A stretch of 64,000 nucleotides of DNA from positions 40,913-104,912 of the IMG/VR virus record IMGVR_UViG_3300049892_000014. One strand, written 5' to 3'. Position 1 is the first letter of the stretch. Each line of letters starts with the position of its first letter. The DNA comes from a virus. Taxonomy: Duplodnaviria > Caudoviricetes. The notes beneath the pieces are model-generated. The model was not told where the DNA came from, did not search any database, and saw only the letters and a program-made list of their open reading frames with translations. Positions 9,735 to 42,736 of this stretch are shown here, piece after piece. A program made the translations under genes and the position numbers.

Positions 9735-10037
9735 TTATTTCATACCTTCAAGGAGACATTCTAACTTTAGCATATCAAAATCATCCGGTGGAAGTTCCTC
9801 AAAATAAGTAGATAGCTTAGTCTGCCCGATGATATTAGGATGTTGGGACAGCCCTAATTTTTTACATATCCTACTCCATACACAGGGAGATAAAGTAAGA
9901 GTAGTTCCACGTAAAACATTACGCTCCATCATCTCTACGTTTTTAACAGGTCTACTTCTTTGCATATAGTCTACGTTGATCCAGAACATATACTTGCATC
10001 TCCTGGCACGTATCACTCTCTCGTATCTTGTACTCAT
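9735..10037 (-). CDS. hypothetical protein with shared C-terminal helix
   Basis: ends PPDDFDMLKLECLLEG. Confidence 0.65.
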   Translation of the reverse strand: MSTRYERVIRARRCKYMFWINVDYMQRSRPVKNVEMMERNVLRGTTLTLSPCVWSRICKKLGLSQHPNIIGQTKLSTYFEELPPDDFDMLKLECLLEGMK

Positions 10038-10038
10038 G

Positions 10039-10329
10039 TTAATCTCCTTGTAGAATTTCTTGTAGGTGAAACGCTTCCCATTCAGCCTTAGTGAAATTGA
10101 CCAATATCTTTAACCATTTCTTTCTTCTTCGGCTATCATATTGAGTGTTGATCTCAAATGTTTGATAAGATATTGGGTATCCTAGTTGTTTTTTAGCACC
10201 CTTAGACCTAACTATCCATTCGGTTTTCCAGTCGGGCCAATCACCATCTTTCGGATAAGACCAGCTAGATTCATCTACCTGCTTTACAAACTCATAGAAG
10301 TTATGGTTTCTACGATTCTTCCTTTTCAA
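10039..10329 (-). CDS. hypothetical protein with shared C-terminal helix
   Basis: ends TKAEWEAFHLQEILQG. Confidence 0.65.
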   Translation of the reverse strand: MKRKNRRNHNFYEFVKQVDESSWSYPKDGDWPDWKTEWIVRSKGAKKQLGYPISYQTFEINTQYDSRRRKKWLKILVNFTKAEWEAFHLQEILQGD

Positions 10330-10774
10330 GGGAATCCTTTCTCATGACGTATGTTGTAAACTGTTTATTAGTAATCAGAATAGGTAGCGGTAGAGCAATC
10401 AAACCCTGCCAAGTTCCAGAGGAAGTATAGCCATTAAGATTAGCTTTGTCATTCCTAACTGTAATATAGGCAGTTCCCTGCTCGTCAAGACGTTGATTGA
10501 TAAACTGAAGAATCTCCTCACGCTTCGCCGGTTCAGATAATGTATTTAATACATAGGTACATAAAATCGTCTGATAATTCCACGCTAGCCATGTTCTATT
10601 CTTATGGTATTGGTCATAACCTTCTATATCTAATAGCTTCGCATCTGTACCATAACCACATCCATAGTCAAGAGCTGGTTTAAGAATAAGTCCCCTATCA
10701 TTCAACATCCTTGCTGGTACGCTTAGCTTCCTTCTTTTAATCGCTGTCTTGTGTGTATTATCTGGTGACTCCAT
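10310..10774 (-). CDS. class I SAM-dependent methyltransferase-like protein
   Basis: LDYGCGYG motif I, GYD, YVLN. Confidence 0.75.
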   Translation of the reverse strand: MESPDNTHKTAIKRRKLSVPARMLNDRGLILKPALDYGCGYGTDAKLLDIEGYDQYHKNRTWLAWNYQTILCTYVLNTLSEPAKREEILQFINQRLDEQGTAYITVRNDKANLNGYTSSGTWQGLIALPLPILITNKQFTTYVMRKDSLEKEES

Positions 10775-30200: not shown

Positions 30201-30555
30201 ATTACCGACAGTTGGATGGCACGACGTAAACACCAAGGAAATAATCCTTCGTGATAAGGGTGCGGTTACCTACCTGCCGTATGCTGTCTTTAAAAATGTG
30301 AAAGAGGTATGGCCTGATAGCGCAACTTACGCAATAGTAAATCGGTACGGGGAAACGCAGGGCCAACTATGGTTTACCCCTATAGATCTTGGCGATAATG
30401 TAAAGCTTAGCATGGAAACTTTTTGCCAGATGGTCCAGGATCAACAAGGTGGAACCGAATACAGCAGAGACGATTTAATCGGTTATCTGAAAGCCCTCCT
30501 GGAAGCAGATGTGGAGCTTTATAAATTAATGGTGAAAATGGGAAAATGGGATTGA
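30190..30555 (+). CDS. hypothetical protein with shared C-terminal helix
   Basis: ends LEADVELYKLMVKMGK. Confidence 0.65.
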   Translation: MPIKLPTVGWHDVNTKEIILRDKGAVTYLPYAVFKNVKEVWPDSATYAIVNRYGETQGQLWFTPIDLGDNVKLSMETFCQMVQDQQGGTEYSRDDLIGYLKALLEADVELYKLMVKMGKWD

Positions 30556-30580
30556 CAAGCTAATTTGACTGTGCTACTAT
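30552..30580 (+). promoter_or_regulatory. sigma70-type promoter
   Basis: TTGACA-17-TACTAT with TG extension. Confidence 0.75.
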
Positions 30581-30601: not shown

Positions 30602-30976
30602 ATGTGGCTGATGACGAAATACGGATTTTATTCTATAGTACAAAAACGACCTGGCATATATCATGTAAGGGCTAGGGAGGTGCATGACTTGTATCACCTA
30701 ATAGACTTCGTCCCTCTTCCAGGAAGAGAGGTTAGATTTACCGGTACTAATGATTATCTAGCCAGGCTGATTCTAAACAAGGAAGAGCTTGATAGAGTAA
30801 TGACTTTCCTTAGCAATAACATTGATTACGACAACTTTAAAGATAAGATAGATAAGACTCCAGAGCAGAGACGCAAACCATACCACAAGATCTGGCAAGT
30901 ATTAGCAGATGCTTTGGGAGCGTATGGTATGCCGCCTAAAAAAAATGGGGGTGAGAAAGTTTCGACAGCCGGATAA
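30602..30976 (+). CDS. conserved hypothetical protein
   Basis: MWL.TKYGFYSIV, VRAR, DY..R, IDYDNFK; GGAGG RBS. Confidence 0.7.
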   Translation: MWLMTKYGFYSIVQKRPGIYHVRAREVHDLYHLIDFVPLPGREVRFTGTNDYLARLILNKEELDRVMTFLSNNIDYDNFKDKIDKTPEQRRKPYHKIWQVLADALGAYGMPPKKNGGEKVSTAG

Positions 30977-31029
30977 GTCCCTGCGGGGAACCTGGCTGGA
31001 CCTGGGAGCGTTACCCAGCACCTCCACCA
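30947..31029 (+). ncRNA. minimal tmRNA-like RNA (tRNA-like domain only, no tag ORF)
   Basis: GGGGGTG/CACCTCC acceptor with G3-U70, A73, CCA; stemless D loop ending TTCGA; P2a CAGCCGG/CTGGCTG; GAC linker; T arm. Confidence 0.8.
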
Positions 31030-31045
31030 AACTTAAGGAGATATT

Positions 31046-31663
31046 ATGAAGTATAGTTCATTTCTAAGATTTTTATTAGGTTTAGGACTAGTGATACTTG
31101 CGGTCGGATTATTCGCTACGACTACGGACTATGTAGCTAAATATCTTTATGAAAAGTCTAGACCTATACCTATCTCTAAAACGTCTTCCATGATAGATGA
31201 GGATGTATTAAAGGGTTTCACTCAGGATGGTAATGATATAGTTTATGATCGGCTTGCGGATGAGATAATCGTTGCCTCTAAGAAGTCGGGCGAGAAGTAC
31301 AATATCCCACCAATACTGATACTCTCAGTAATGCAAGCCGAGTCTTCCTTCAACCTGAACGCATTCAGCAAGGAAAAAGCTAAGGGATTGATGCAGATTA
31401 ACACGGCTGTTTGGGGAGATCAGTTGCGTAAGGCTGGTATAATAAGTAAGGACTCAGATATCTATGATCCTCAGAATAATATTGAGGCAGGATGCTTTAT
31501 ACTGCGTCAGTACATTGACGAGACTAAAGACTTTGAGAAGGCGATGAATAAGTATTTAGGCGCTTACTATAAACCATATATTGACAAGATCGGTCGAAAT
31601 GTGGGAGATATATGTATGAAAAATATTTCCAAGAGGATTGACGCAACGTATAAAATAAAATAG
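31046..31663 (+). CDS. lytic transglycosylase (SLT) with N-terminal membrane anchor
   Basis: QAESSFN, AKGLMQI, YDPQNNIEAG; N-terminal hydrophobic helix. Confidence 0.88.
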   Translation: MKYSSFLRFLLGLGLVILAVGLFATTTDYVAKYLYEKSRPIPISKTSSMIDEDVLKGFTQDGNDIVYDRLADEIIVASKKSGEKYNIPPILILSVMQAESSFNLNAFSKEKAKGLMQINTAVWGDQLRKAGIISKDSDIYDPQNNIEAGCFILRQYIDETKDFEKAMNKYLGAYYKPYIDKIGRNVGDICMKNISKRIDATYKIK

Positions 31664-31671
31664 GAGGGGTT

Positions 31672-32052
31672 ATGAAAGTAGCTATCGTAGGATCTCGACG
31701 CAGGATGGATAAAGAGTCAGTCGTAGCTTATGTTAATACCCTACCGGAAGGAACGGTTGTTGTCAGCGGTGGATGTGAAGGAGTGGATACCTGGGCCATA
31801 GATCGGGCTAAAGAACTAGGATTGAAGTGGAAGATCTTCTTTCCTGACTTTAAGGGTGCGAAGACTTATGGCGATTTGTGCAAGCGTTACTATGCACGTA
31901 ACGAAGAAGTAGTGAAATTTTCTGACGTTATAGTTGCCTTCGTTTCCGACGACCGAAAGGGAGGAACCGAGAACACGATCAAATGGGCAAAAAAATACGG
32001 GAAACCAGTTATTATAATGAAGGAAGAAAAAGATGCCGTGGCAAGCAACTAA
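31672..32052 (+). CDS. SLOG/DprA-like Rossmann protein
   Basis: AIVGSR, VSGGCEGVD, YYARN, GGTENTI. Confidence 0.8.
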   Translation: MKVAIVGSRRRMDKESVVAYVNTLPEGTVVVSGGCEGVDTWAIDRAKELGLKWKIFFPDFKGAKTYGDLCKRYYARNEEVVKFSDVIVAFVSDDRKGGTENTIKWAKKYGKPVIIMKEEKDAVASN

Positions 32053-32195
32053 TAGTTATGTTAACCCGTTTCCAAATTGACATATATGCGGACTCCCAGT
32101 TTGGGTTGGAGATAGGGTTGTCAAGCAAAATGGGCCGCACACGCTATGTAGCGAGAATGAATTAAGCGTTACATTGAAACGATTGGAGAGAGAAC

Positions 32196-32546
32196 TTGAA
32201 GAACCTACTATTCAGCCTAACAGCTAAAGACTTTGAGTTCCAAACCTTCTGCACCGGAGGAAATGGTGGGCAGCATCGCAATGCTAAGCAGAACGGTGTT
32301 AGATGTATTCATCCAGATTCAGGAGCTAGAGCCGAGCATAGAGATGGACGTGACCAGAGAAAGAATAAGCAAGAGGCGTTTAGAAAGTGTTGTGAAACGC
32401 CTACTTTTAAGATATGGCACAAGCTTGAAGTTGCTAAAAGGCTCAGGCAACCAATACAAAAAACAGAAGAAGAAATTCAGAGATACGTAAACGAGCAGAT
32501 GCAAGAAGGGAATTTAAAAATTGAAGAACTTGAAATTTCAGTTTGA
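32196..32546 (+). CDS. GGQ release-factor-like peptidyl-tRNA hydrolase domain protein
   Basis: GGNGGQHRN, VRCIH..SG, RDQRKNK..A; domain 3 only. Confidence 0.85.
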   Translation: MKNLLFSLTAKDFEFQTFCTGGNGGQHRNAKQNGVRCIHPDSGARAEHRDGRDQRKNKQEAFRKCCETPTFKIWHKLEVAKRLRQPIQKTEEEIQRYVNEQMQEGNLKIEELEISV

Positions 32547-33120
32547 GGCACCGAAGAAATTCGATCCTTTTATAATTGATGTAGAAACTCAGAAGCTTTC
32601 AAACGAAGTAGAGGGTGGATGGAAGTCTATTGACCAGTTCTTGGTTTCCGTATCTGTATCCTGGGATAAAGCTAACGGCACTAGAGTATGGTATGAAGAA
32701 GATACTATCAGGCTGATTGAGGAAGCGAAGAAGCATTATCCCATTGTTTCTTTTAATGGAGAGGGCTTTGACTTCATAGTCCTGAGCCATTACGGGGATG
32801 TAAATCCCCTTTATCAGTCGAGCGTGGACCTGTTGAAAATTTCTAAAAAAATTTTAGGGTTCCGCATCAAACTGGATTCCTTAGCTCAGGCCACCCTTGG
32901 GTCTGAGAAGACTGCTGATGGATTGCAGGCTGTAGCGTGGTGGAGGTCTGGAGATCCAGAATTAAGGCAGAAGGTAGTTGATTACTGTAAGTCTGACGCA
33001 GAGATTACCAGGGATATATATCAATACGCTATTGATAATGGGCATCTTCATTGCACCGACTTACAGGGTGGGAAGTTTAAGTATAACATTAGCAAATCGG
33101 TCCTTGGTGTAACGGAATAG
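32521..33120 (+). CDS. RNase H-like DEDD 3'-5' exonuclease
   Basis: DVET, SFNGEGFD, LDSLA, YCKSD. Confidence 0.8.
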   Translation: MKNLKFQFEAPKKFDPFIIDVETQKLSNEVEGGWKSIDQFLVSVSVSWDKANGTRVWYEEDTIRLIEEAKKHYPIVSFNGEGFDFIVLSHYGDVNPLYQSSVDLLKISKKILGFRIKLDSLAQATLGSEKTADGLQAVAWWRSGDPELRQKVVDYCKSDAEITRDIYQYAIDNGHLHCTDLQGGKFKYNISKSVLGVTE

Positions 33121-33174
33121 CACAGCAGTCTCCAAAACTGCAAGGTCTAGGTTCAAATCCTAGAGGGCTGGCCA
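33098..33174 (+). tRNA. tRNA-Trp(CCA)
   Basis: cloverleaf, loop CTCCAAA, TTCAAAT T loop, CCA. Confidence 0.9.
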
Positions 33175-33179
33175 AATTC

Positions 33180-33264
33180 GATGACGTAGTTATAATCCTT
33201 CGGGTAGTTAGAACGCCACCATTAGGGGGTGGTAGTGCTGATAAAAACGCAGCCGTCATCATCA
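33180..33264 (+). ncRNA. atypical tRNA-like element (TAG anticodon)
   Basis: perfect GATGACG/CGTCATC acceptor and CCACC/GGTGG anticodon stem; non-canonical D and T loops; ends ATCA. Confidence 0.6.
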
Positions 33265-33334
33265 ATTTTATGCCATAGCGTGATCTACAGGAGGTACATG
33301 CGCACTCCAGCGATACGGGGCGCTATGGTTTTAT

Positions 33335-33412
33335 CGGGGTGTGGCCAAATTGGTTTAAGGCTCTTGATTTGGAATCAAGGAACTGGAGGTTCGAGTCCTC
33401 CCGCCCCGACCA
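33335..33412 (+). tRNA. tRNA-Pro(TGG)
   Basis: cloverleaf, loop TTTGGAA, CCA. Confidence 0.92.
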
Positions 33413-33428
33413 AACTTATGGGGGAGAT

Positions 33429-33938
33429 ATGCTACAAGGGAAGGTTAAATTCGGCGTGGTGGAGTCTGGTATTTATTCTATTTATTCCATCATTAAAGAC
33501 GTAGTATCGCTTCTTGATAACAGGAAGGATAACTATGGTCTTACATCAAACCAAATAACACAGGGAATTATGGGGGCGGGAGCAGAGGGCGCTGTGCATA
33601 AAAGAATGGGTCTATATTTTCCATTTCCCATTAATGTCTTTAAAAGCCAACCTGATTGCATACCGTTAAGTGCAGATATTAGATGGACAGGAAGCCAGGC
33701 GATTATTATTAGACCAGGAGATGCAGATCGGTGGATGATCGGAGTTAGTGGTGGACCGAGAGAGTGGACTATACATGGAGCAATTAATGTTGTTGATGTT
33801 AAGAAGCTCCCTAAAGATAGTCAGCATTTTTGGTATGCGCCTGACAAAAGTAGGCCTGGATGCTGGAATATACCATTTAAGTATTTTAGGGAAATAGGGG
33901 ATGTGAGCTATTTAAATGAAAGAGAATTCCGTCAATGA
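33429..33938 (+). CDS. hypothetical protein, possibly PD-(D/E)xK-like nuclease
   Basis: GAGAEGAV...PD...DIRWT; GGAG RBS. Confidence 0.5.
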   Translation: MLQGKVKFGVVESGIYSIYSIIKDVVSLLDNRKDNYGLTSNQITQGIMGAGAEGAVHKRMGLYFPFPINVFKSQPDCIPLSADIRWTGSQAIIIRPGDADRWMIGVSGGPREWTIHGAINVVDVKKLPKDSQHFWYAPDKSRPGCWNIPFKYFREIGDVSYLNEREFRQ

Positions 33939-34335
33939 GGCGAGTATGAAAAAGAAAAATAAAGAATCCGGCCCAGTCTACTGTATAGAGTATAGCTATC
34001 AAACCGGTGATTCATTCCATACTGAAGATAGGCGTGATACTCTGGAATATGAATGGCACGACTACGACATAGCCAAGGAAGCGCTCACTCGTATCAATGA
34101 GCATTATAAATGGTACGAAGGCAAAGAGAGGTCATACGCTCCAAAGGTGAAGAAGCCAAAGTGGCATAAGATTAATACGGAGTCTATGAAGTGGTTTCAT
34201 GAGGATTCTATGCACAATCTCATTAATCTTAGAATGGATGACGGTCAAGAGGTTCAATTTTGGCCACCATGGTGCGGATACTTTGAATCTTTATATGGTG
34301 CGGAAATCGTACTAAAGCACGATAAGTTTAGATAT

Positions 34336-34415
34336 TGAGGGATAGCTTAGGCCTTGGTAAAAGCGCCGGTCTGTTAAACCGGAAATCGCAGGTTCGACTC
34401 CTGCTCCCTCAGCCA
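34336..34415 (+). tRNA. tRNA-Asn(GTT)
   Basis: cloverleaf, loop CTGTTAA, G73, CCA. Confidence 0.93.
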
Positions 34416-34421
34416 ATTTAC

Positions 34422-34496
34422 GGGTAGGTAGCTTAATGGCTAAAGCCCTGGACTGTGAATTCAGCTATCTGGGTTCGACTCCCAGCCTTCCCTCCA
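34422..34496 (+). tRNA. tRNA-His(GTG)
   Basis: cloverleaf, loop CTGTGAA, CCA. Confidence 0.88.
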
Positions 34497-34504
34497 TTTA
34501 ATAC

Positions 34505-34592
34505 GCCGACGCTGAGGAGATGGCGAGCCTCGCTTGACTGTAAATCAAGTCGCCTTCGGGCGTTGTAGGTTCGACTCCTACCGGCGGCACCA
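34505..34592 (+). tRNA. tRNA-Tyr(GTA)
   Basis: loop CTGTAAA, long variable arm, CCA. Confidence 0.9.
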
Positions 34593-34600
34593 AATTTTAT

Positions 34601-34674
34601 TGGTGGTTAGCCTAATGGCAAGGCAGCGGGCCTTGAACCCGCTTAAATAGGTTCGATTCCTATACCATCTACCA
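34601..34674 (+). tRNA. tRNA with TTG (Gln) anticodon, atypical identity elements
   Basis: cloverleaf, loop CCTTGAA, CCA. Confidence 0.85.
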
Positions 34675-34675
34675 A

Positions 34676-34759
34676 GCCGAAGTGGTGGAATGGCAGACAC
34701 GCCGGTCTTAGAAACCGGTCCCTTAAGGGGTGGGGGTTCAAGTCCCTCCTTCGGTACCA
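34676..34759 (+). tRNA. tRNA-Leu(TAG)
   Basis: loop CTTAGAA, long variable arm, CCA. Confidence 0.93.
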
Positions 34760-35306
34760 ATATATAACAAGGAGATCGCATGGCAGAAATTAATAAGTGG
34801 TACGAAAGTTTAGGTGCAGACTATTACTCTAACTCAGTAGGCGAGATTGAGTGGCAGTATATAGGGGGAGTTGCTATTCCGTATGGGGTGACTCGTTTTA
34901 TAGAGTTTACCGGTAAAGGAGATCCTACTCCGGAAGATCTTGCTGAGATCCAAGATAAAGCTTTGGGTATTGAGGCTCCATATAATTACACTGAAGTAGT
35001 GGCTAATGCCCTTAAGTGCTATGTGAATATTGTGGTATGGCGCAAGCGTCTAGATACTTTCTGGGTCTTTAGTAATAGACATGAGGAATGGGTTAAGTTC
35101 GCAGAGGCGGAGTATCGTAATTACGTAATTAAGAAAACTAAACTACCAGTTGCTCTTGATTATGAGGATATGCTGAAGAAGCGATCAGAAAAATATGCCA
35201 ATAAGCCTACTCCTAAAAACCGTCCAAGCTTATCTTTGCACGTAGATCGAATACGCAAGCGTGATAAAACAGAGGGTAATGGTCCAGATCCAGTTAAATA
35301 GAATAT

Positions 35307-35393
35307 GCGATTGTGGTGAAATTGGCAGACACAGCGGACTTAAAATCCGCTGCCTTAACGGGCGTGAGAGTTCAAGTCTCTCCTTTCGCACCA
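35307..35393 (+). tRNA. tRNA-Leu(TAA)
   Basis: loop CTTAAAA, long variable arm, CCA. Confidence 0.92.
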
Positions 35394-35794: not shown

Positions 35795-36904
35795 ATGGCA
35801 AACGTAAAAGATGTTTTTTCGATAGAAGCTCTTGACGAACAAATAGAGCGTGGATTTGTGTCCAAACGTAAACATCCAGATCTCCCACTGTATATATATA
35901 ACTATACCCAGGAGGCTACGTTTGCCAATGAATGGAATGAAGTCACTATGACTTGTAGGGGGTTGATATTAGATGGAGACTATAATATTATCGCTCGTCC
36001 TTTTAGGAAGTTTTTTAATCTGGAAACTGCTGGCCTTCCTGAGACGCAAATTAACAACCTTCCTAGGGACGTTAAACAAACTATAACCGAGAAGATGGAT
36101 GGTTCTCTTGGAATTCTTTGGAGATATAAAGGCCACGAAGGCATAGCGACTAGAGGTTCCTTTACCTCTGAGCAGGCGATATGGGCAACGAATCATTGGC
36201 GTACATTAATGTTTTTAAGATGGCACTTTGCATTCGACCGTGATACCACTCCTTTGTTCGAGATTATATATCCAGAGAATCGCATCGTTGTTGACTATAA
36301 GGGTGACAAGAAGCTTGTTCTGCTAGGAATTGTGAATAATGCAGATGGAACCGAATATTCCTATGACGAACTTAAATCCACTGGATATCCCAATGTAGTC
36401 ACGGTCTATGAAGGTAAATCTCTTTCCGATTGCGTATCTCAAGCTGAGACGGATTTACCTCTTAATAGGGAGGGGTATGTTGTAAGCTATGATACTAAGC
36501 CAATGCCCCTTCGTATTAAAATTAAGTTTGACGAGTACCTCAGATTACATAGGCTTATCTTCAGCTTAAATGATCGGGTCATCTGGGAATCTGTTAGCCA
36601 AGGCATTAATCCTAATGCTAATCTCGACTATGCTCCAGATGAAATCAGAGCATGGATAAAGAAATACACTCAGAAGTTTCTAAGTGAGTGCGAGAGAATT
36701 GCGTACACTGCCGAGGACGTGTTTAACCGGAGACCACGCAATGTCAGTAGGAAGGAAATTGCACAATGGTTTAGTATGTATCCAGAAGTAAAGAGTTCTT
36801 GCTTTGCGATGCTGGATAATAAAGATTACTTTCCTATCATATGGAAGATGCTTCGACCAAAACATGCAACACCTTTTAGGAGGGATGTGCCTGATGGAGA
36901 ATAA
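35795..36904 (+). CDS. RNA ligase 1 (T4 Rnl1-like)
   Basis: CRGLI, ARPFRKFFN, TEKMDGSLG, ATRGSF, FEII, EGYV, KIK. Confidence 0.9.
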   Translation: MANVKDVFSIEALDEQIERGFVSKRKHPDLPLYIYNYTQEATFANEWNEVTMTCRGLILDGDYNIIARPFRKFFNLETAGLPETQINNLPRDVKQTITEKMDGSLGILWRYKGHEGIATRGSFTSEQAIWATNHWRTLMFLRWHFAFDRDTTPLFEIIYPENRIVVDYKGDKKLVLLGIVNNADGTEYSYDELKSTGYPNVVTVYEGKSLSDCVSQAETDLPLNREGYVVSYDTKPMPLRIKIKFDEYLRLHRLIFSLNDRVIWESVSQGINPNANLDYAPDEIRAWIKKYTQKFLSECERIAYTAEDVFNRRPRNVSRKEIAQWFSMYPEVKSSCFAMLDNKDYFPIIWKMLRPKHATPFRRDVPDGE

Positions 36905-37970: not shown

Positions 37971-38639
37971 ATGGTTAGAAGCGATAGAGATCGTGAATAT
38001 GATAAACGGTACAGAGAAGAACATAGAGAAGAGATTAGAGAGCGTGATCGTCGCTGGAGAGCGGAACACCTAGAGAGCATAAGGGAGAGTCAAAGGATAT
38101 CTAATAGAAAATATGCAGAGAAAAACAGAGAATCCCTCAATGCTAAATCTAACAATCGCTACTGGAAAGACATTGAAGCTTCCAGGGCTAAAGGTAGGAA
38201 GTATGCCGCAAAGTATAGAGAAGAACACTTAGAAGCGGTCAGGGGGAGGGATCGTGAGCATTATGCTAAAAAAGGTGGTAAGGAGAAAATGAGACAGTGG
38301 AGAGCGAAAGATCCAGAAGCAAGGAGGGAGAGGGATAGGGAATATGAGAAAAAAAATTACTCCTCTAGAAGAGATGGGAAGCTAAGGAGTAAATACAATA
38401 TCTCACTATCAGACTACAGCGAGATGCTAGAAAAACAAAATGGAGCGTGTGCTATCTGCGGGATAGATCGAAATTTCCCAGGAAAGGGTAATAAGCTATT
38501 TGTGGATCACGATCATAAAACAGGCAAAGTTAGAGGGCTTCTGTGTAACAATTGCAACGCTCACCTTGGAATCCTAGAAAACGAAGCGTTTGTCAATAAG
38601 GCTAATGAGTACTTGGGTGGAGGAGAATATAATGTCTGA
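37971..38639 (+). CDS. endonuclease VII-family nuclease with charged helical N-terminus (probable free-standing homing endonuclease)
   Basis: QNGACAIC, VDHDHKTGKVRGLLCNNCN..LG. Confidence 0.88.
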   Translation: MVRSDRDREYDKRYREEHREEIRERDRRWRAEHLESIRESQRISNRKYAEKNRESLNAKSNNRYWKDIEASRAKGRKYAAKYREEHLEAVRGRDREHYAKKGGKEKMRQWRAKDPEARRERDREYEKKNYSSRRDGKLRSKYNISLSDYSEMLEKQNGACAICGIDRNFPGKGNKLFVDHDHKTGKVRGLLCNNCNAHLGILENEAFVNKANEYLGGGEYNV

Positions 38640-39723
38640 ACATATATGTGAAGTAGTTCCAGTAGTACTAGAGAAACACGACAACGCTGACCTACTGTCT
38701 ATTGTCCGTGTTCGTGGATGGCAGTGTGTCGTGAAGACTGCTGATTTTCAGAACCAGCCACTGGGTATATATATCCCAATCGACATGATGATTCCAGATA
38801 CACCTGAATGGGCGTGGATGGAAAGTAAGCGTGTCAAAACTCACAAGTTCCGTGGAGCAATCTCTCAGGGATTACTTATACCAGCGGCAAAGGGTATGCG
38901 TATCGGAGACGATGTAACGGCACAACTTGGTATCACTAGATACATACCAAAGATTCCTGGTAATAAAAGCAAGCTCCGTGGCGGTCAGTCTATCGCACCG
39001 CCTCCAGGTATGATTAAGTACACAGATATAGAGAACTGGAAGAACTACTCTCATATCTTTACTAATAAAGATCTAGTAGTGGTTACAGAGAAGATACATG
39101 GGGCCAATTCTAGGTTCGCCATACTGGACGGTAAGTTCTATACTGGATCTCACAACACTGTTCGGAAGCCTATTCCGCCAGAGCCGACTAGTTGGTTTGG
39201 TAAGAAGATTCTTTCTTTAAAGCGAAAGATGGGCCTGGCTCCAATTAAGCGGACTCCAGATACATGGCAACAGGTAGCGGTGAATTACGACATAGAGAAT
39301 AAGATGCGCATGGCCTTTCACAATAAGCAGGACGTTATCTTATTCGGTGAAATCTACGGGCCTCATGTTCAGTCTAGTATGCCATACGGAGTTCCAGAAG
39401 GAGAGACTCATGTAGCGTTCTTTGATTGCTATACAGATGGACGCTATATGGGATGGAATGAATTCCAATCCAAAATGATCTCCATGGGTCTACCAACTGT
39501 CCCCCAGCTTAAAATCATGGCCTTCGGTCAAGATGTTATAGATATGGTAGATGGCAAGGCTTTTGCTGGTACTCATATCAGAGAGGGTATTGTTGTAAAG
39601 CCTTGGCCGGATGAGCAGTTCGACAGCAGGCTTGGTCGTAAGGTTATTAAAATGATTAGCGACAAATATCTCTTGAAAGACTACGAGCAAGAGCCTGATG
39701 ACGCTATTGACGTGGCTGAATAA
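38632..39723 (+). CDS. RNA ligase, DRB0094-like with N-terminal OB fold
   Basis: HDNADLL, FRGAISQGL, TEKIHGAN, FGEIYG, FFD, REGIVVK. Confidence 0.88.
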   Translation: MSEHICEVVPVVLEKHDNADLLSIVRVRGWQCVVKTADFQNQPLGIYIPIDMMIPDTPEWAWMESKRVKTHKFRGAISQGLLIPAAKGMRIGDDVTAQLGITRYIPKIPGNKSKLRGGQSIAPPPGMIKYTDIENWKNYSHIFTNKDLVVVTEKIHGANSRFAILDGKFYTGSHNTVRKPIPPEPTSWFGKKILSLKRKMGLAPIKRTPDTWQQVAVNYDIENKMRMAFHNKQDVILFGEIYGPHVQSSMPYGVPEGETHVAFFDCYTDGRYMGWNEFQSKMISMGLPTVPQLKIMAFGQDVIDMVDGKAFAGTHIREGIVVKPWPDEQFDSRLGRKVIKMISDKYLLKDYEQEPDDAIDVAE

Positions 39724-40849: not shown

Positions 40850-42736
40850 TTGAATCATATACAGGAACATAAGATTTTAACAGAGGTATGGGACCATCTG
40901 GATCAAAGACTAGATGATGCTGGGGGAATTGTATGGAAAGCCTGGGAGTCACTATCAAGCTTAGAGATTGAATTTATCACCAAAGAAGTGGGTAGGATAG
41001 TAACAGATCCCAGGTACTATCTCACTCACTATCACAAAATCCGCACCAAAGATAATATGATTCGCTCCATGCTTCCTTTGTTTGATTCGCAGGAAGCGTT
41101 TCTTGAAATATTCCTTCGACAATTAAATAACAAAGAACCGATTAGAATTATCGTCTTAAAAGCTAGACAGCTTGGAATGACATCTTTAAGTACAGCCCTA
41201 GTATTCTGGCGTACTATAACCATGGAAAACGTCAACACTGCCTCTATTAGCGATGAAGATGAGCGTTCATTAGTAGCTTATAATATGTGTCGTATCGCCT
41301 GGGAAAGTTTACCGTGGTGGTTTAAGCCGGAGGTGAGACATCTCGTACAAGCTAAACAGATTACTTTCGACAGAACTAATGAGAAAGATAGGGCGAAATC
41401 TCCTGGGCTTCGTTCAAGTATTAGTTTTGAGCCTGCTAATTCCCCTTCTGGCGCTCTTTATTCTAAGTCTCTCTTTGCTATACATTGCGCTGAAGTAAGT
41501 CGATATCGGAAGGCCGACGCTCTAGTAGAAGGAGTATTCGGGTCTCTTGTTAATATACCTGGCTCTATAGGTATCATGGAAAGCACGGCAAGAGGACGTA
41601 AGGGTGTATGGTATGATATATGCGATGCGGCTATGCACAAGCGTATGGACTGGGAATTCTTGTTCCTTCCGTGGTTTTCAGAGCCTGGATACAGGGAAAC
41701 TGTTATAGGTGGATTTAGCAGAACAAAGGAAGAAGAGTCTATTGCCATAGGCGCTGAACGGGATTATGGAGTAAAGATTGATGATGAGCAATTAAATTGG
41801 CGACGGCGTAAGGCTGCTCAGTTTACGGCGGCTGATGGAAATGACGATAGAGTTGCGCAGGAATTTGCAGGAAATCCAACCGAAGCGTTTCTACAAACAG
41901 GATCGTGCGCATTTAATAAGAAGATGCTCCAGATGCAGGTAAACAACTTCGTACAGCCGCCCATGTGGGAGGGCGAGGTTGCATTAAAGCCTAATAATAA
42001 ACAACCAAAATTGACCAGGCTTCCAGACGGAAGATTTCAAGTATGGGAATGGCCAAGGGCTAATGAAGTATATTACGTACCTGGAGATCCATCTCTAGGA
42101 GTTGAAAACGCCGACTTTTCCTGCATACAGGTATTAAAGATACCAAAAGATCCAATGAAGCCCATTGAGCAAGTAGCTAGATGGCATGGATTAGTAGGAA
42201 CTCCAGAGTTCGCTAGGATCATGTGCGCTATTGGCTATCTGTATAATACTGCTGAAGTGTGTCCAGAGAGTAATACATTCCAGAATATTATCAGCGATAT
42301 AGTCAGGGTATATGATTATCCTAACTGGTATAGATGGACAGCTGACGACAAAGTTAAGGGACAGTACTCTAACTTTATGGGATGGGTCACTAATAGTCGA
42401 ACTCGTCCTGCTATTATCTCTAAATTTAGGGAAGCTATTAATGAGATTACGGTCATCATAAGATCGGCTGACGATATTAATGAATGCTATGATTTTGGTG
42501 ACGTTGATGGCTTTGGTGATTCCAAGCGATTTGAAGCACTCTCAGGACACGATGATGGACTAATGGCATTCATGATTGGATATTATGTTTGCACTAAGAT
42601 ACAGCCAAGACTATACGAGTCTGACGACGTCATCTATACAGACCCTAATGCTACTAGGCAGAATACGGATTACTCCCCAATTTACGACAATGATCCAATG
42701 GATAACCCACAACGCTTTGACTATGACATGCTATAA
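40850..42736 (+). CDS. terL: terminase large subunit
   Basis: LKARQLGMT Walker A, ESTARG, PWF, nuclease GDPSLG..D, ESN, HDD..MA. Confidence 0.92.
   Translation: MNHIQEHKILTEVWDHLDQRLDDAGGIVWKAWESLSSLEIEFITKEVGRIVTDPRYYLTHYHKIRTKDNMIRSMLPLFDSQEAFLEIFLRQLNNKEPIRIIVLKARQLGMTSLSTALVFWRTITMENVNTASISDEDERSLVAYNMCRIAWESLPWWFKPEVRHLVQAKQITFDRTNEKDRAKSPGLRSSISFEPANSPSGALYSKSLFAIHCAEVSRYRKADALVEGVFGSLVNIPGSIGIMESTARGRKGVWYDICDAAMHKRMDWEFLFLPWFSEPGYRETVIGGFSRTKEEESIAIGAERDYGVKIDDEQLNWRRRKAAQFTAADGNDDRVAQEFAGNPTEAFLQTGSCAFNKKMLQMQVNNFVQPPMWEGEVALKPNNKQPKLTRLPDGRFQVWEWPRANEVYYVPGDPSLGVENADFSCIQVLKIPKDPMKPIEQVARWHGLVGTPEFARIMCAIGYLYNTAEVCPESNTFQNIISDIVRVYDYPNWYRWTADDKVKGQYSNFMGWVTNSRTRPAIISKFREAINEITVIIRSADDINECYDFGDVDGFGDSKRFEALSGHDDGLMAFMIGYYVCTKIQPRLYESDDVIYTDPNATRQNTDYSPIYDNDPMDNPQRFDYDML

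Follow-up and report, generated by a model that had tools for sequence, protein, structure and literature searches.

A Phage Translation Island Carrying a tRNA-Like-Domain-Only tmRNA and a Stand-Alone GGQ Protein

A 64,000-nucleotide stretch of phage DNA (hereafter the window; IMG/VR record IMGVR_UViG_3300049892_000014, positions 40,913 to 104,912) encodes an 83-nucleotide (nt) mini-tmRNA, that is, a transfer-messenger RNA (tmRNA) consisting of the tRNA-like domain only, and, 1,166 nt away on the same strand, a 116-residue protein consisting of the Gly-Gly-Gln (GGQ) domain of release factors and a short C-terminal extension. An earlier interpretation (the sequence-only reading) had joined the two into one ribosome rescue module that releases peptides untagged. 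We find that both elements are real and that each belongs to a family found in viruses. The genome holds a GGQ-family gene, a form of tmRNA and tRNAs, the composition of a phage translation island, and what is distinctive here is that the tmRNA slot of this known island is filled by the tRNA-like domain alone. GGQ-family genes are over-represented in phages with a tmRNA of their own, and the pairing with a mini-tmRNA does not recur in the related phages. The observation is confirmed and its first interpretation partly supported, in that a looser link between the GGQ family and tmRNAs stands.

The viral record measures 104.9 kb, with an estimated completeness of ~82%, and the window makes up its right-hand 64 kb. 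Near-identical metagenome contigs, DNA contigs only, come from freshwater and freshwater-sediment samples.

The Mini-tmRNA and Its Viral Family

The RNA folds with a 7-bp acceptor stem that contains G3:U70 and ends in A73-CCA (folding energy −35.9 kcal/mol; z = −2.2 against shuffled sequences). The acceptor strand is followed by an unpaired segment, GAGAAAGUUUCGAC, which ends in UUCGAC. The middle is occupied by a hairpin of 7 bp with a 4-bp stem inside, which sits where the tag region would be and is followed by GGA, and the T arm has a 5-bp stem and the loop AGCGUUA and leads into ACCA. All features of the tRNA-like domain of a standard tmRNA are present (acceptor with G3:U70, A73, CCA, UUCGAC and T arm). 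The mRNA-like domain, with its resume codon, tag frame and pseudoknots, is absent, and the two halves of the tRNA-like domain are only ~32 nt apart. The size of the RNA, the short hairpin joining its halves and its covarying helices are those of the tRNA-like-domain-only tmRNA of mycobacteriophage DS6A (type range ~65–100 nt). A UAA within the hairpin was considered as a resume or stop codon and dropped, as it sits in an A-rich bulge common to many mini-tmRNAs, many of them without UAA.

Standard searches pass over this RNA. Neither ARAGORN nor Rfam at the gathering score reports it, no RF00023 or RF04321 match occurs in the phage record, and the Rfam alpha_tmRNA model reaches only 11.5 bits, over the T arm and 3′ end. 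We therefore scanned IMG/VR with a pattern that fixes four features only (GGGG, UUCGAC, GGAC and UCCACCA). At least 119 contigs matched (L038–L156), and at least 115 loci passed a filter of 7/7 acceptor pairs and at least four of five T-stem pairs. Two pattern matches are clearly random; in nearly all others, positions outside the pattern pair too. From the 88 distinct mini-tmRNA sequences we aligned 80 (79 plus the window copy) and found that 96% of cells pair, compared with ~55% in slid controls, and that both partners vary in 17 of the 23 pairs. The covariance model built from this alignment (R2) gives the window copy 79.5 bits and the published DS6A RNA 56.6 bits. The recovery of DS6A serves as an independent positive control. 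The window RNA is thus real and a member of a family, as its fold, its R2 score and the covariation of that family all indicate; on this point the sequence-only reading was right.

The mini-tmRNAs measure 67–97 nt and come from at least 115 viral contigs; 110 of these 115 escape ARAGORN, and at 98 of the 115 loci there is no tRNA close by. Their frequency in phages is thus much higher than the one case on record, DS6A, would suggest, and standard finders miss them. We also considered whether they are attP remnants of ssrA-integrating phages and dropped the idea, as both halves are present and the acceptor stems covary; a tyrosine integrase occurs in only 3 of the 36 larger mini-tmRNA records. 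The exact 20-mer of the 5′ end of the window copy has no match in viral contigs.

The T loop AGCGUUA also occurs in the tmRNAs of a Saccharibacteria metagenome-assembled genome (MAG) and of an alphaproteobacterial Aliishimia MAG (L168, L169). Since these are bona fide tmRNAs, the odd T loop of the window copy is a tmRNA-type variant. The two MAGs and an uncultured bacterium are the three matches of a genome search with the 3′ half of the RNA, and no host was assigned from them. The same unusual loop, GGAGCGUUACC, in place of the usual UUCGAAU type, is also seen in ARAGORN-called tRNA-Thr genes (GGU, UGU) of GGQ-bearing phages, at L022 10631–10700, L027 6711–6784 and 9097–9166, L037 4224–4297 and L020 599–672; one tRNA-like element in L027 that bears it is not called by ARAGORN. 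Short contigs with other flanks, from two freshwater metagenome runs, match only positions 30997–31029 of the window, the last 33 nt of the RNA, with ~3 differences in one of them. This 3′ half is thus present in another genome of that habitat, perhaps in the tmRNA gene of the host or in a related phage.

A GGQ Protein without a Basic Tail

The GGQ protein starts at a TTG codon preceded by GGAGAGAG. It matches the RF-1 family PF00472 with 41 bits (cut-off 35) over residues 7–69, including the motif GGNGGQ, and PHROG 3122 (“RF-1 domain peptide chain release factor”) with 70.3 bits, so the stand-alone GGQ protein that had been proposed 1.2 kb from the mini-tmRNA is confirmed. Among NCBIfam models it gives partial matches to RF1, RF2 and PrfH only; there is no ArfB model among these matches and no ArfB chain among its PDB sequence matches. 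In the AlphaFold model (predicted local distance difference test, pLDDT, 83), the GGQ loop belongs to a three-stranded sheet, and three helices come after it. Foldseek returned no PDB match at E ≤ 0.001, and the matches beyond that limit are without exception to domain 3 of release factors, the best of them being weak matches to domain 3 of RF2, RF1 and PrfH (E about 3e-3) and of C12orf65.

The protein is made up of the release-factor GGQ domain and ~50 further residues without net positive charge. The C-terminal 50 residues hold 8 Lys and Arg against 10 Asp and Glu, a net charge of −2, and the family has a median of −1 and a range of −5 to +2 over 45–50 residues, in agreement with the earlier statement that this C-terminus is not strongly basic. 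ArfB senses the empty mRNA channel by a positively charged C-terminal tail or helix (PMC7427801). Because the C-terminal helices here have no net positive charge, the targeting of the GGQ protein is not ArfB-like.

The family comprises at least 489 clusters at 90% identity, with members of 105–135 residues that are 65–79% identical to the window protein, and 35 viral contigs encode homologues at 57–87% identity. The GGQ motif is invariant in 35 aligned homologues, as are F71, W74, H75, E78 and E110 in the C-terminal part.

Several homologues depart from this pattern. At 9983–10333 of L024 and L025, which represent one lineage with a 97-kb record carrying terminal repeats, GGG replaces GGQ in an otherwise intact homologue. 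Three others (L034, about 1674–2060; L035, 2181–2513; L036, 9992–10330) reach a stop at CTT TAA, after EQYL or QHL, and from there the exact sequence of intact homologues (EQYLNKREAF) goes on in the +1 frame. In form, the CTT TAA site resembles the prfB CUU-UGA +1 frameshift site, and reading CTTT as a single Leu would give the full 109-residue protein in L035; the L036 copy is damaged further on too, and decay is an alternative to frameshifting. A pattern scan for such frameshift-like copies found these three contigs only. In L032 and L033 (about 9985–10368), a 23-nt insert directly follows GGQH, the elements there being, in order, CAT (His), TAG, a GGTC-GGGA-GACC hairpin and CAC (His), and the reading frame is then taken up again with RNAKQ. 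By analogy, this arrangement of matched take-off and landing codons, stop and stem-loop may recall the T4 gene 60 bypass.

The GGQ Family Accompanies tmRNAs, Not Mini-tmRNAs

The sequence-only reading had set the co-occurrence of the two genes across related phages beforehand as its own test. When PF00472 was sought in the whole records of 115 other mini-tmRNA contigs, including 15 that are ≥90% complete, none contained it (0/115), and it is absent from the complete DS6A genome. Run over Tunturi_3 and the 34 IMG/VR records that encode close GGQ homologues, R2 recovered only the window's own mini-tmRNA; all its other matches there are tRNAs or acceptor pieces of permuted tmRNAs. The mini-tmRNA/GGQ pairing therefore fails that test (0/115 and 0/34). 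R2 also gave no match in five other cultured GGQ phages, in a run flagged as uninformative. Neither a strict regular expression nor a model built on one sequence (R1) detected a mini-tmRNA in the ±10 kb around 35 GGQ homologues; what they did match there are tRNA-Thr genes that share the T loop AGCGUUA and were rejected as mini-tmRNAs.

What often accompanies the GGQ gene is a longer tmRNA. Among 36 close-homologue records, a genuine permuted tmRNA (RF04321) scores above the cut-off in 9 and reaches 42.5 bits in two more; a standard tmRNA was not found among them. In cultured phages, tblastn found the GGQ family in 208 records, namely the Tunturiibacter phages Tunturi_3 and Tunturi_4 and 206 mycobacteriophages, and 5 of the 6 cultured GGQ lineages checked have a tmRNA. 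It is of the standard form in the Bxz1-like ScottMcG (18.8 kb from the GGQ gene), the Wildcat-like EniyanLRS (5.7 kb upstream) and the Mycobacterium abscessus prophage prophiGD54-2 (4.1 kb upstream), and of the permuted form in Tunturi_3 (5.4 kb away) and Tunturi_4, where only 5 nt separate its start from the GGQ stop; in WXIN, no tmRNA was found. The two permuted tmRNAs (Tunturi_4, PP885687.1 43532–43941, equal to L174 6332–6741, 79.2 bits; Tunturi_3, PP885686.1 88172–88396, 63.3 bits; RF04321) are unannotated in the GenBank stretches examined. Since Tunturi_4 has no tRNA gene and Tunturi_3 has three, and both carry a tmRNA and a GGQ gene, the link to tmRNA is not a mere by-product of tRNA arrays.

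Against an overall carriage rate of 2.3% among phage genomes (PMC9004378), tmRNA is present in about a third to most of the GGQ lineages, an enrichment of the family in tmRNA-bringing phages. The association is one-way: tmRNAs and mini-tmRNAs do not need the GGQ gene, and the GGQ gene does not need them. At least five complete or nearly complete GGQ records (G004, G018, G021, G024, G034) contain no tmRNA, and the distance between the two genes, where both are present, ranges from 5 nt to 93 kb. The companion tmRNAs are full length, with tag frames of the ordinary kind that end in stop codons (AAAFALPVAA followed by one stop; another ending in AVAA followed by two), which leaves no step for an extra hydrolase. 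Neither the proposed tag-free hand-off nor a need of the GGQ protein for a mini-tmRNA partner is supported, given the GGQ genomes without a tmRNA, the tags and stops of the companion tmRNAs and the absence of an RF-1 domain from all 115 of the 115 mini-tmRNA records. No SmpB gene is present in 42 phage records, those of the window and of DS6A included.

Gene Order around the Two Genes

All genes between 28 and 41 kb of the window lie on the plus strand (Table 1). The sequence-only reading had placed both genes behind one promoter at 30552. The site there is a good match to the promoter pattern, and there is no terminator-like site on the plus strand between 30731 and 35403; the evidence is of pattern only, however, as promoter-like sites in the region are no more numerous than expected from shuffled sequences. 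Moreover, a dozen genes and eight tRNAs follow one another on this strand, so that a common transcript would not be specific to the two genes. Co-transcription of the mini-tmRNA and the GGQ gene is plausible, though it is no evidence for a pair.

Table 1. Features on either side of the mini-tmRNA and the GGQ gene, in window coordinates.
Feature	Position	Strand	Detail
AAA ATPase and several small open reading frames (ORFs), then tRNA-Met	5′ of the promoter-like site	+	
Sigma-70-like promoter pattern	30552..30580	+	TTGACA-17-TACTAT, TG extended; 10/12 positions matched
124-residue ORF, no known family	30602..30976	+	GGAGGG ahead of start
Mini-tmRNA, tRNA-like domain only	30947..31029	+	83 nt; G3:U70; encoded CCA
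SLT-domain lytic transglycosylase	31046..31663	+	N-terminal membrane segment; PF01464, 66.7 bits
SLOG-fold protein (DprA-like / cpYpsA / YAcAr type)	31672..32052	+	PF02481, 36.6 bits; PF12694, 31.3 bits; PF10686, 21.8 bits
Stand-alone GGQ (RF-1 domain) protein	32196..32546	+	116 residues; PHROG 3122 family
DEDD / RNase H-fold 3′-5′ exonuclease	32521..33120	+	Overlaps GGQ stop codon; PF13482, 48.6 bits; PF01612, 26.3 bits
Eight tRNA genes	33098..35393	+	Trp, Pro, Asn, His, Tyr, Gln, Leu, Leu
T4 Rnl1-type RNA ligase	35795..36904	+	PF09511, 57.1 bits
Endonuclease VII	Between the Rnl1-type and the second RNA ligase		
Second RNA ligase	38590..39723	+	PF09414 and PHA02142 OB fold

The last 10 codons and the TAA stop of the 124-residue ORF lie inside the mini-tmRNA, within its first 30 nt, with the stop in the hairpin. 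The ORF has no homologue in the flanks of the GGQ relatives. Excision of the mini-tmRNA at its 5′ end would strip the stop codon from the mRNA of this ORF. Such an overlap as a general design was dropped, as only 6 of 89 distinct mini-tmRNA loci have one; it looks like tight packing.

The neighborhood of the GGQ gene is poorly conserved. When the other window genes from 28 to 35.3 kb were compared with the ±10-kb flanks of the GGQ homologues, only the SLOG gene was recovered, and only once (L037, 38% identity). The GGQ gene thus behaves as a self-contained cargo gene. Clustering of the neighbors within 3 kb found no partner in more than 6 loci, the annotated recurring ones (≤6 loci) being a SprT-like protein, a histidine phosphatase and a metallophosphoesterase. 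A tRNA lies within 1 kb of the GGQ gene in 16 of 36 loci, and in L022 as many as 38 tRNAs surround it.

Agreement with the cultured phages is found at the level of gene type. A YAcAr-type SLOG gene adjoins the GGQ gene in the window, in EniyanLRS (L173 5264–7086) and in prophiGD54-2 (L176 2995–5385); a DEDD or RNase_T-type exonuclease lies 3′ of it in the window and in EniyanLRS, there two genes after; and an RtcB-like ligase follows it in prophiGD54-2, the window having Rnl-type ligases nearby. BLASTP of the window SLOG protein and exonuclease against the EniyanLRS neighbors is insignificant, so that the agreement holds at the Pfam superfamily level only, and PF02481, used as a probe for SLOG neighbors, missed even annotated mycobacteriophage DprA-like genes. 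Judged by their sequences, the SLOG, exonuclease and RNA ligase neighbors would fit a role in keeping translation going while RNA gets cut.

Two further elements were seen near GGQ genes. Amber-reading tRNAs with the anticodon CUA, which ARAGORN labels tRNA-Pyl, are found no more than a few kb from the gene at L005 12298–12372 and L026 6738–6813, and a type II hammerhead ribozyme match of 41.9 bits (cut-off 37) is present in a GGQ-bearing viral contig (L009 19011–19074).

Discussion

From the established anatomy, family membership and distribution of both genes, we favor, with about even confidence, a model in which the mini-tmRNA and the GGQ protein are separate members of a phage translation-support set that act in parallel on stalled ribosomes. 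For this model we infer alanine charging, SmpB use, the hydrolase activity of the GGQ protein and the stress that is answered. The GGQ protein would be a ribosome-dependent, codon-independent peptidyl-tRNA hydrolase, whose GGQ loop would enter the peptidyl-transferase center and free the nascent chain. The 83-nt RNA would be cut from the long plus-strand transcript, as tRNAs are, and would be charged with alanine through G3:U70. Because no examined phage record encodes SmpB, the mini-tmRNA would use that of the host, and it would then either take over the peptide on a non-stop ribosome, with no degradation tag added, or compete with the host tmRNA for SmpB. Both genes would serve a phage with its own tRNAs and two RNA ligases by keeping translation running during RNA cutting in infection. 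The theme that appears to recur is one of two rescue routes per genome, by analogy with tmRNA and ArfB in bacteria; a hand-off between the routes does not recur.

Several points weigh against this model. The hydrolase role of the GGQ family is a prediction from sequence. With neither a ribosome-sensing tail nor codon-reading domains, the GGQ protein has no known way of selecting stalled ribosomes, so that a partner is possible. Tight linkage between a GGQ gene and a form of tmRNA is seen three times (5 nt in Tunturi_4, 0.9 kb in G005/G006 and 1.2 kb in the window), and these three close linkages exceed what a loose toolkit strictly requires. Finally, the 2.3% baseline for tmRNA carriage refers to phage genomes overall and not to comparable phages without a GGQ gene.

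Of the alternatives, the replacement of one pathway by another is unlikely but the most probable. Here the mini-tmRNA would be a decoy that titrates host SmpB, perhaps also AlaRS or EF-Tu, and so blocks tagging, with the GGQ protein giving untagged release and no hand-off between the two. A DS6A-like molecule is reported by the authors of the tmRNA database to inhibit tmRNA strongly, perhaps via SmpB titration (PMC4131195; PMC11915505), the absence of SmpB genes from the phage records points the same way, and the lack of nearby tRNAs at most mini-tmRNA loci is as expected of a self-sufficient inhibitor. However, the perfect conservation of identity pair, discriminator and CCA is partly imposed by the search pattern and cannot tell a decoy from an acceptor, and GGQ phages mostly bring a working tmRNA, the opposite of a block on tagging.

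It is rather improbable that the two genes share no function and merely occupy the same accessory region, the GGQ protein doing something else such as termination tuning or translational reprogramming. The neighbors of the GGQ gene differ in almost every lineage, in the Bxz1-like phages it sits between DNA polymerase and RecA genes, far from the tmRNA, and the in-frame stops of some homologues resemble recoding sites, hinting at control by termination efficiency. Against this, the co-occurrence with tmRNA persists in the tRNA-poor Tunturi phages and speaks for a common theme.

The sequential rescue of the original proposal, in which alanine-charged mini-tmRNA and SmpB accept the chain and the GGQ protein then hydrolyzes peptidyl-Ala-RNA so that the protein leaves untagged, is very doubtful. 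Its logic is that a mini-tmRNA offers no reading frame to resume on, which would call for a hydrolysis step, and isolated tmRNA tRNA-like domains can accept peptide in vitro. The proximity of the two genes on one strand with no terminator-like site between, the lack of an ArfB tail and the tendency of the GGQ family to accompany phage tmRNAs, adjacent in Tunturi_4, are all consistent with it, but no mini-tmRNA record, DS6A included, has a GGQ domain, mini-tmRNAs are absent from the GGQ relatives, the tmRNAs found alongside the GGQ gene encode tags with stops and need no extra hydrolase, and several GGQ genomes that are complete or nearly so lack a tmRNA. We consider it equally doubtful that the GGQ protein is a dedicated companion of phage tmRNAs of any form that hydrolyzes peptidyl-tmRNA or peptidyl-Ala on the ribosome; if it were, phage tmRNA could turn ribosomes over without help from host release factors, and release in this phage would be untagged, only the tRNA-like domain being left.

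The model of parallel action can be set beside several known systems. The tRNA-like-domain-only tmRNA of DS6A has been described together with its inhibitory effect on tmRNA (tmRNA Website; PMC4131195, PMC11915505). Like the window copy, this RNA is phage encoded, about 80 nt long and mostly tRNA-like domain, is found by the same covariance model and comes from a genome without SmpB. DS6A differs in having no GGQ gene and in infecting Mycobacterium, whereas the window copy is marked by a rare T loop, AGCGUUA, and is overlapped by the ORF upstream. Tag-less forms are also known from mitochondria and plastids, whose tmRNAs without a tag frame keep the tRNA-like part (PMC11915505); unlike the RNA described here, they derive from permuted genes and work with nucleus-encoded SmpB.

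For the island as a whole, the closest parallels are mycobacterial. The RF-1, Pth and tmRNA genes of mycobacterial and phage tRNA arrays have been read as possible extra rescue factors (PMC5966550), and a release factor and a tmRNA are on record for prophiGD54-2 along with its tRNA array (PMC8092301). These arrays contain the same GGQ-only family (37–42% identity over 94% of the length) together with tRNAs and tmRNA, and the EniyanLRS order of tmRNA, tRNAs, SLOG, GGQ and exonuclease can be likened to that of the window. The tmRNAs of the mycobacteriophages and prophage are full length with tag frames, however, in contrast to the tRNA-like domain of the window.

Two small release factors resemble the GGQ protein in part. 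ArfB (YaeJ) and ICT1 are likewise small, codon independent and devoid of stop-codon-reading domains, ArfB being a back-up for bacterial tmRNA, but the C-terminus of the GGQ family is neutral to acidic and no ArfB model or structure was matched. PrfH is similar in that the GGQ domain and the next helix align to positions 103–188 of the 200 of its model, a PrfH structure is among the fold matches, and RNA ligases lie near the GGQ gene here and, as an RtcB-like ligase, in prophiGD54-2. The GGQ protein nevertheless lacks the N-terminal domain, related to domains 2/4 of RF2, by which PrfH recognizes a damaged decoding center, and TIGR03072 (PrfH) gives it 34.1 bits against a cut-off of 166.65. The papers searched contain no report of a tRNA-like-domain-only tmRNA beside a GGQ gene and no functional study of the GGQ family.

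If a hand-off did take place, trans-translation would have a new form that adds no tag, and this would explain how tmRNAs without a reading frame finish, a question that also concerns some mitochondria and plastids. More modestly, very conserved and uncharacterized mini release factors travel with phage tmRNAs, tRNAs and RNA-repair genes, and tRNA-like-domain-only tmRNAs, described so far from one phage, are common in viral metagenomes.

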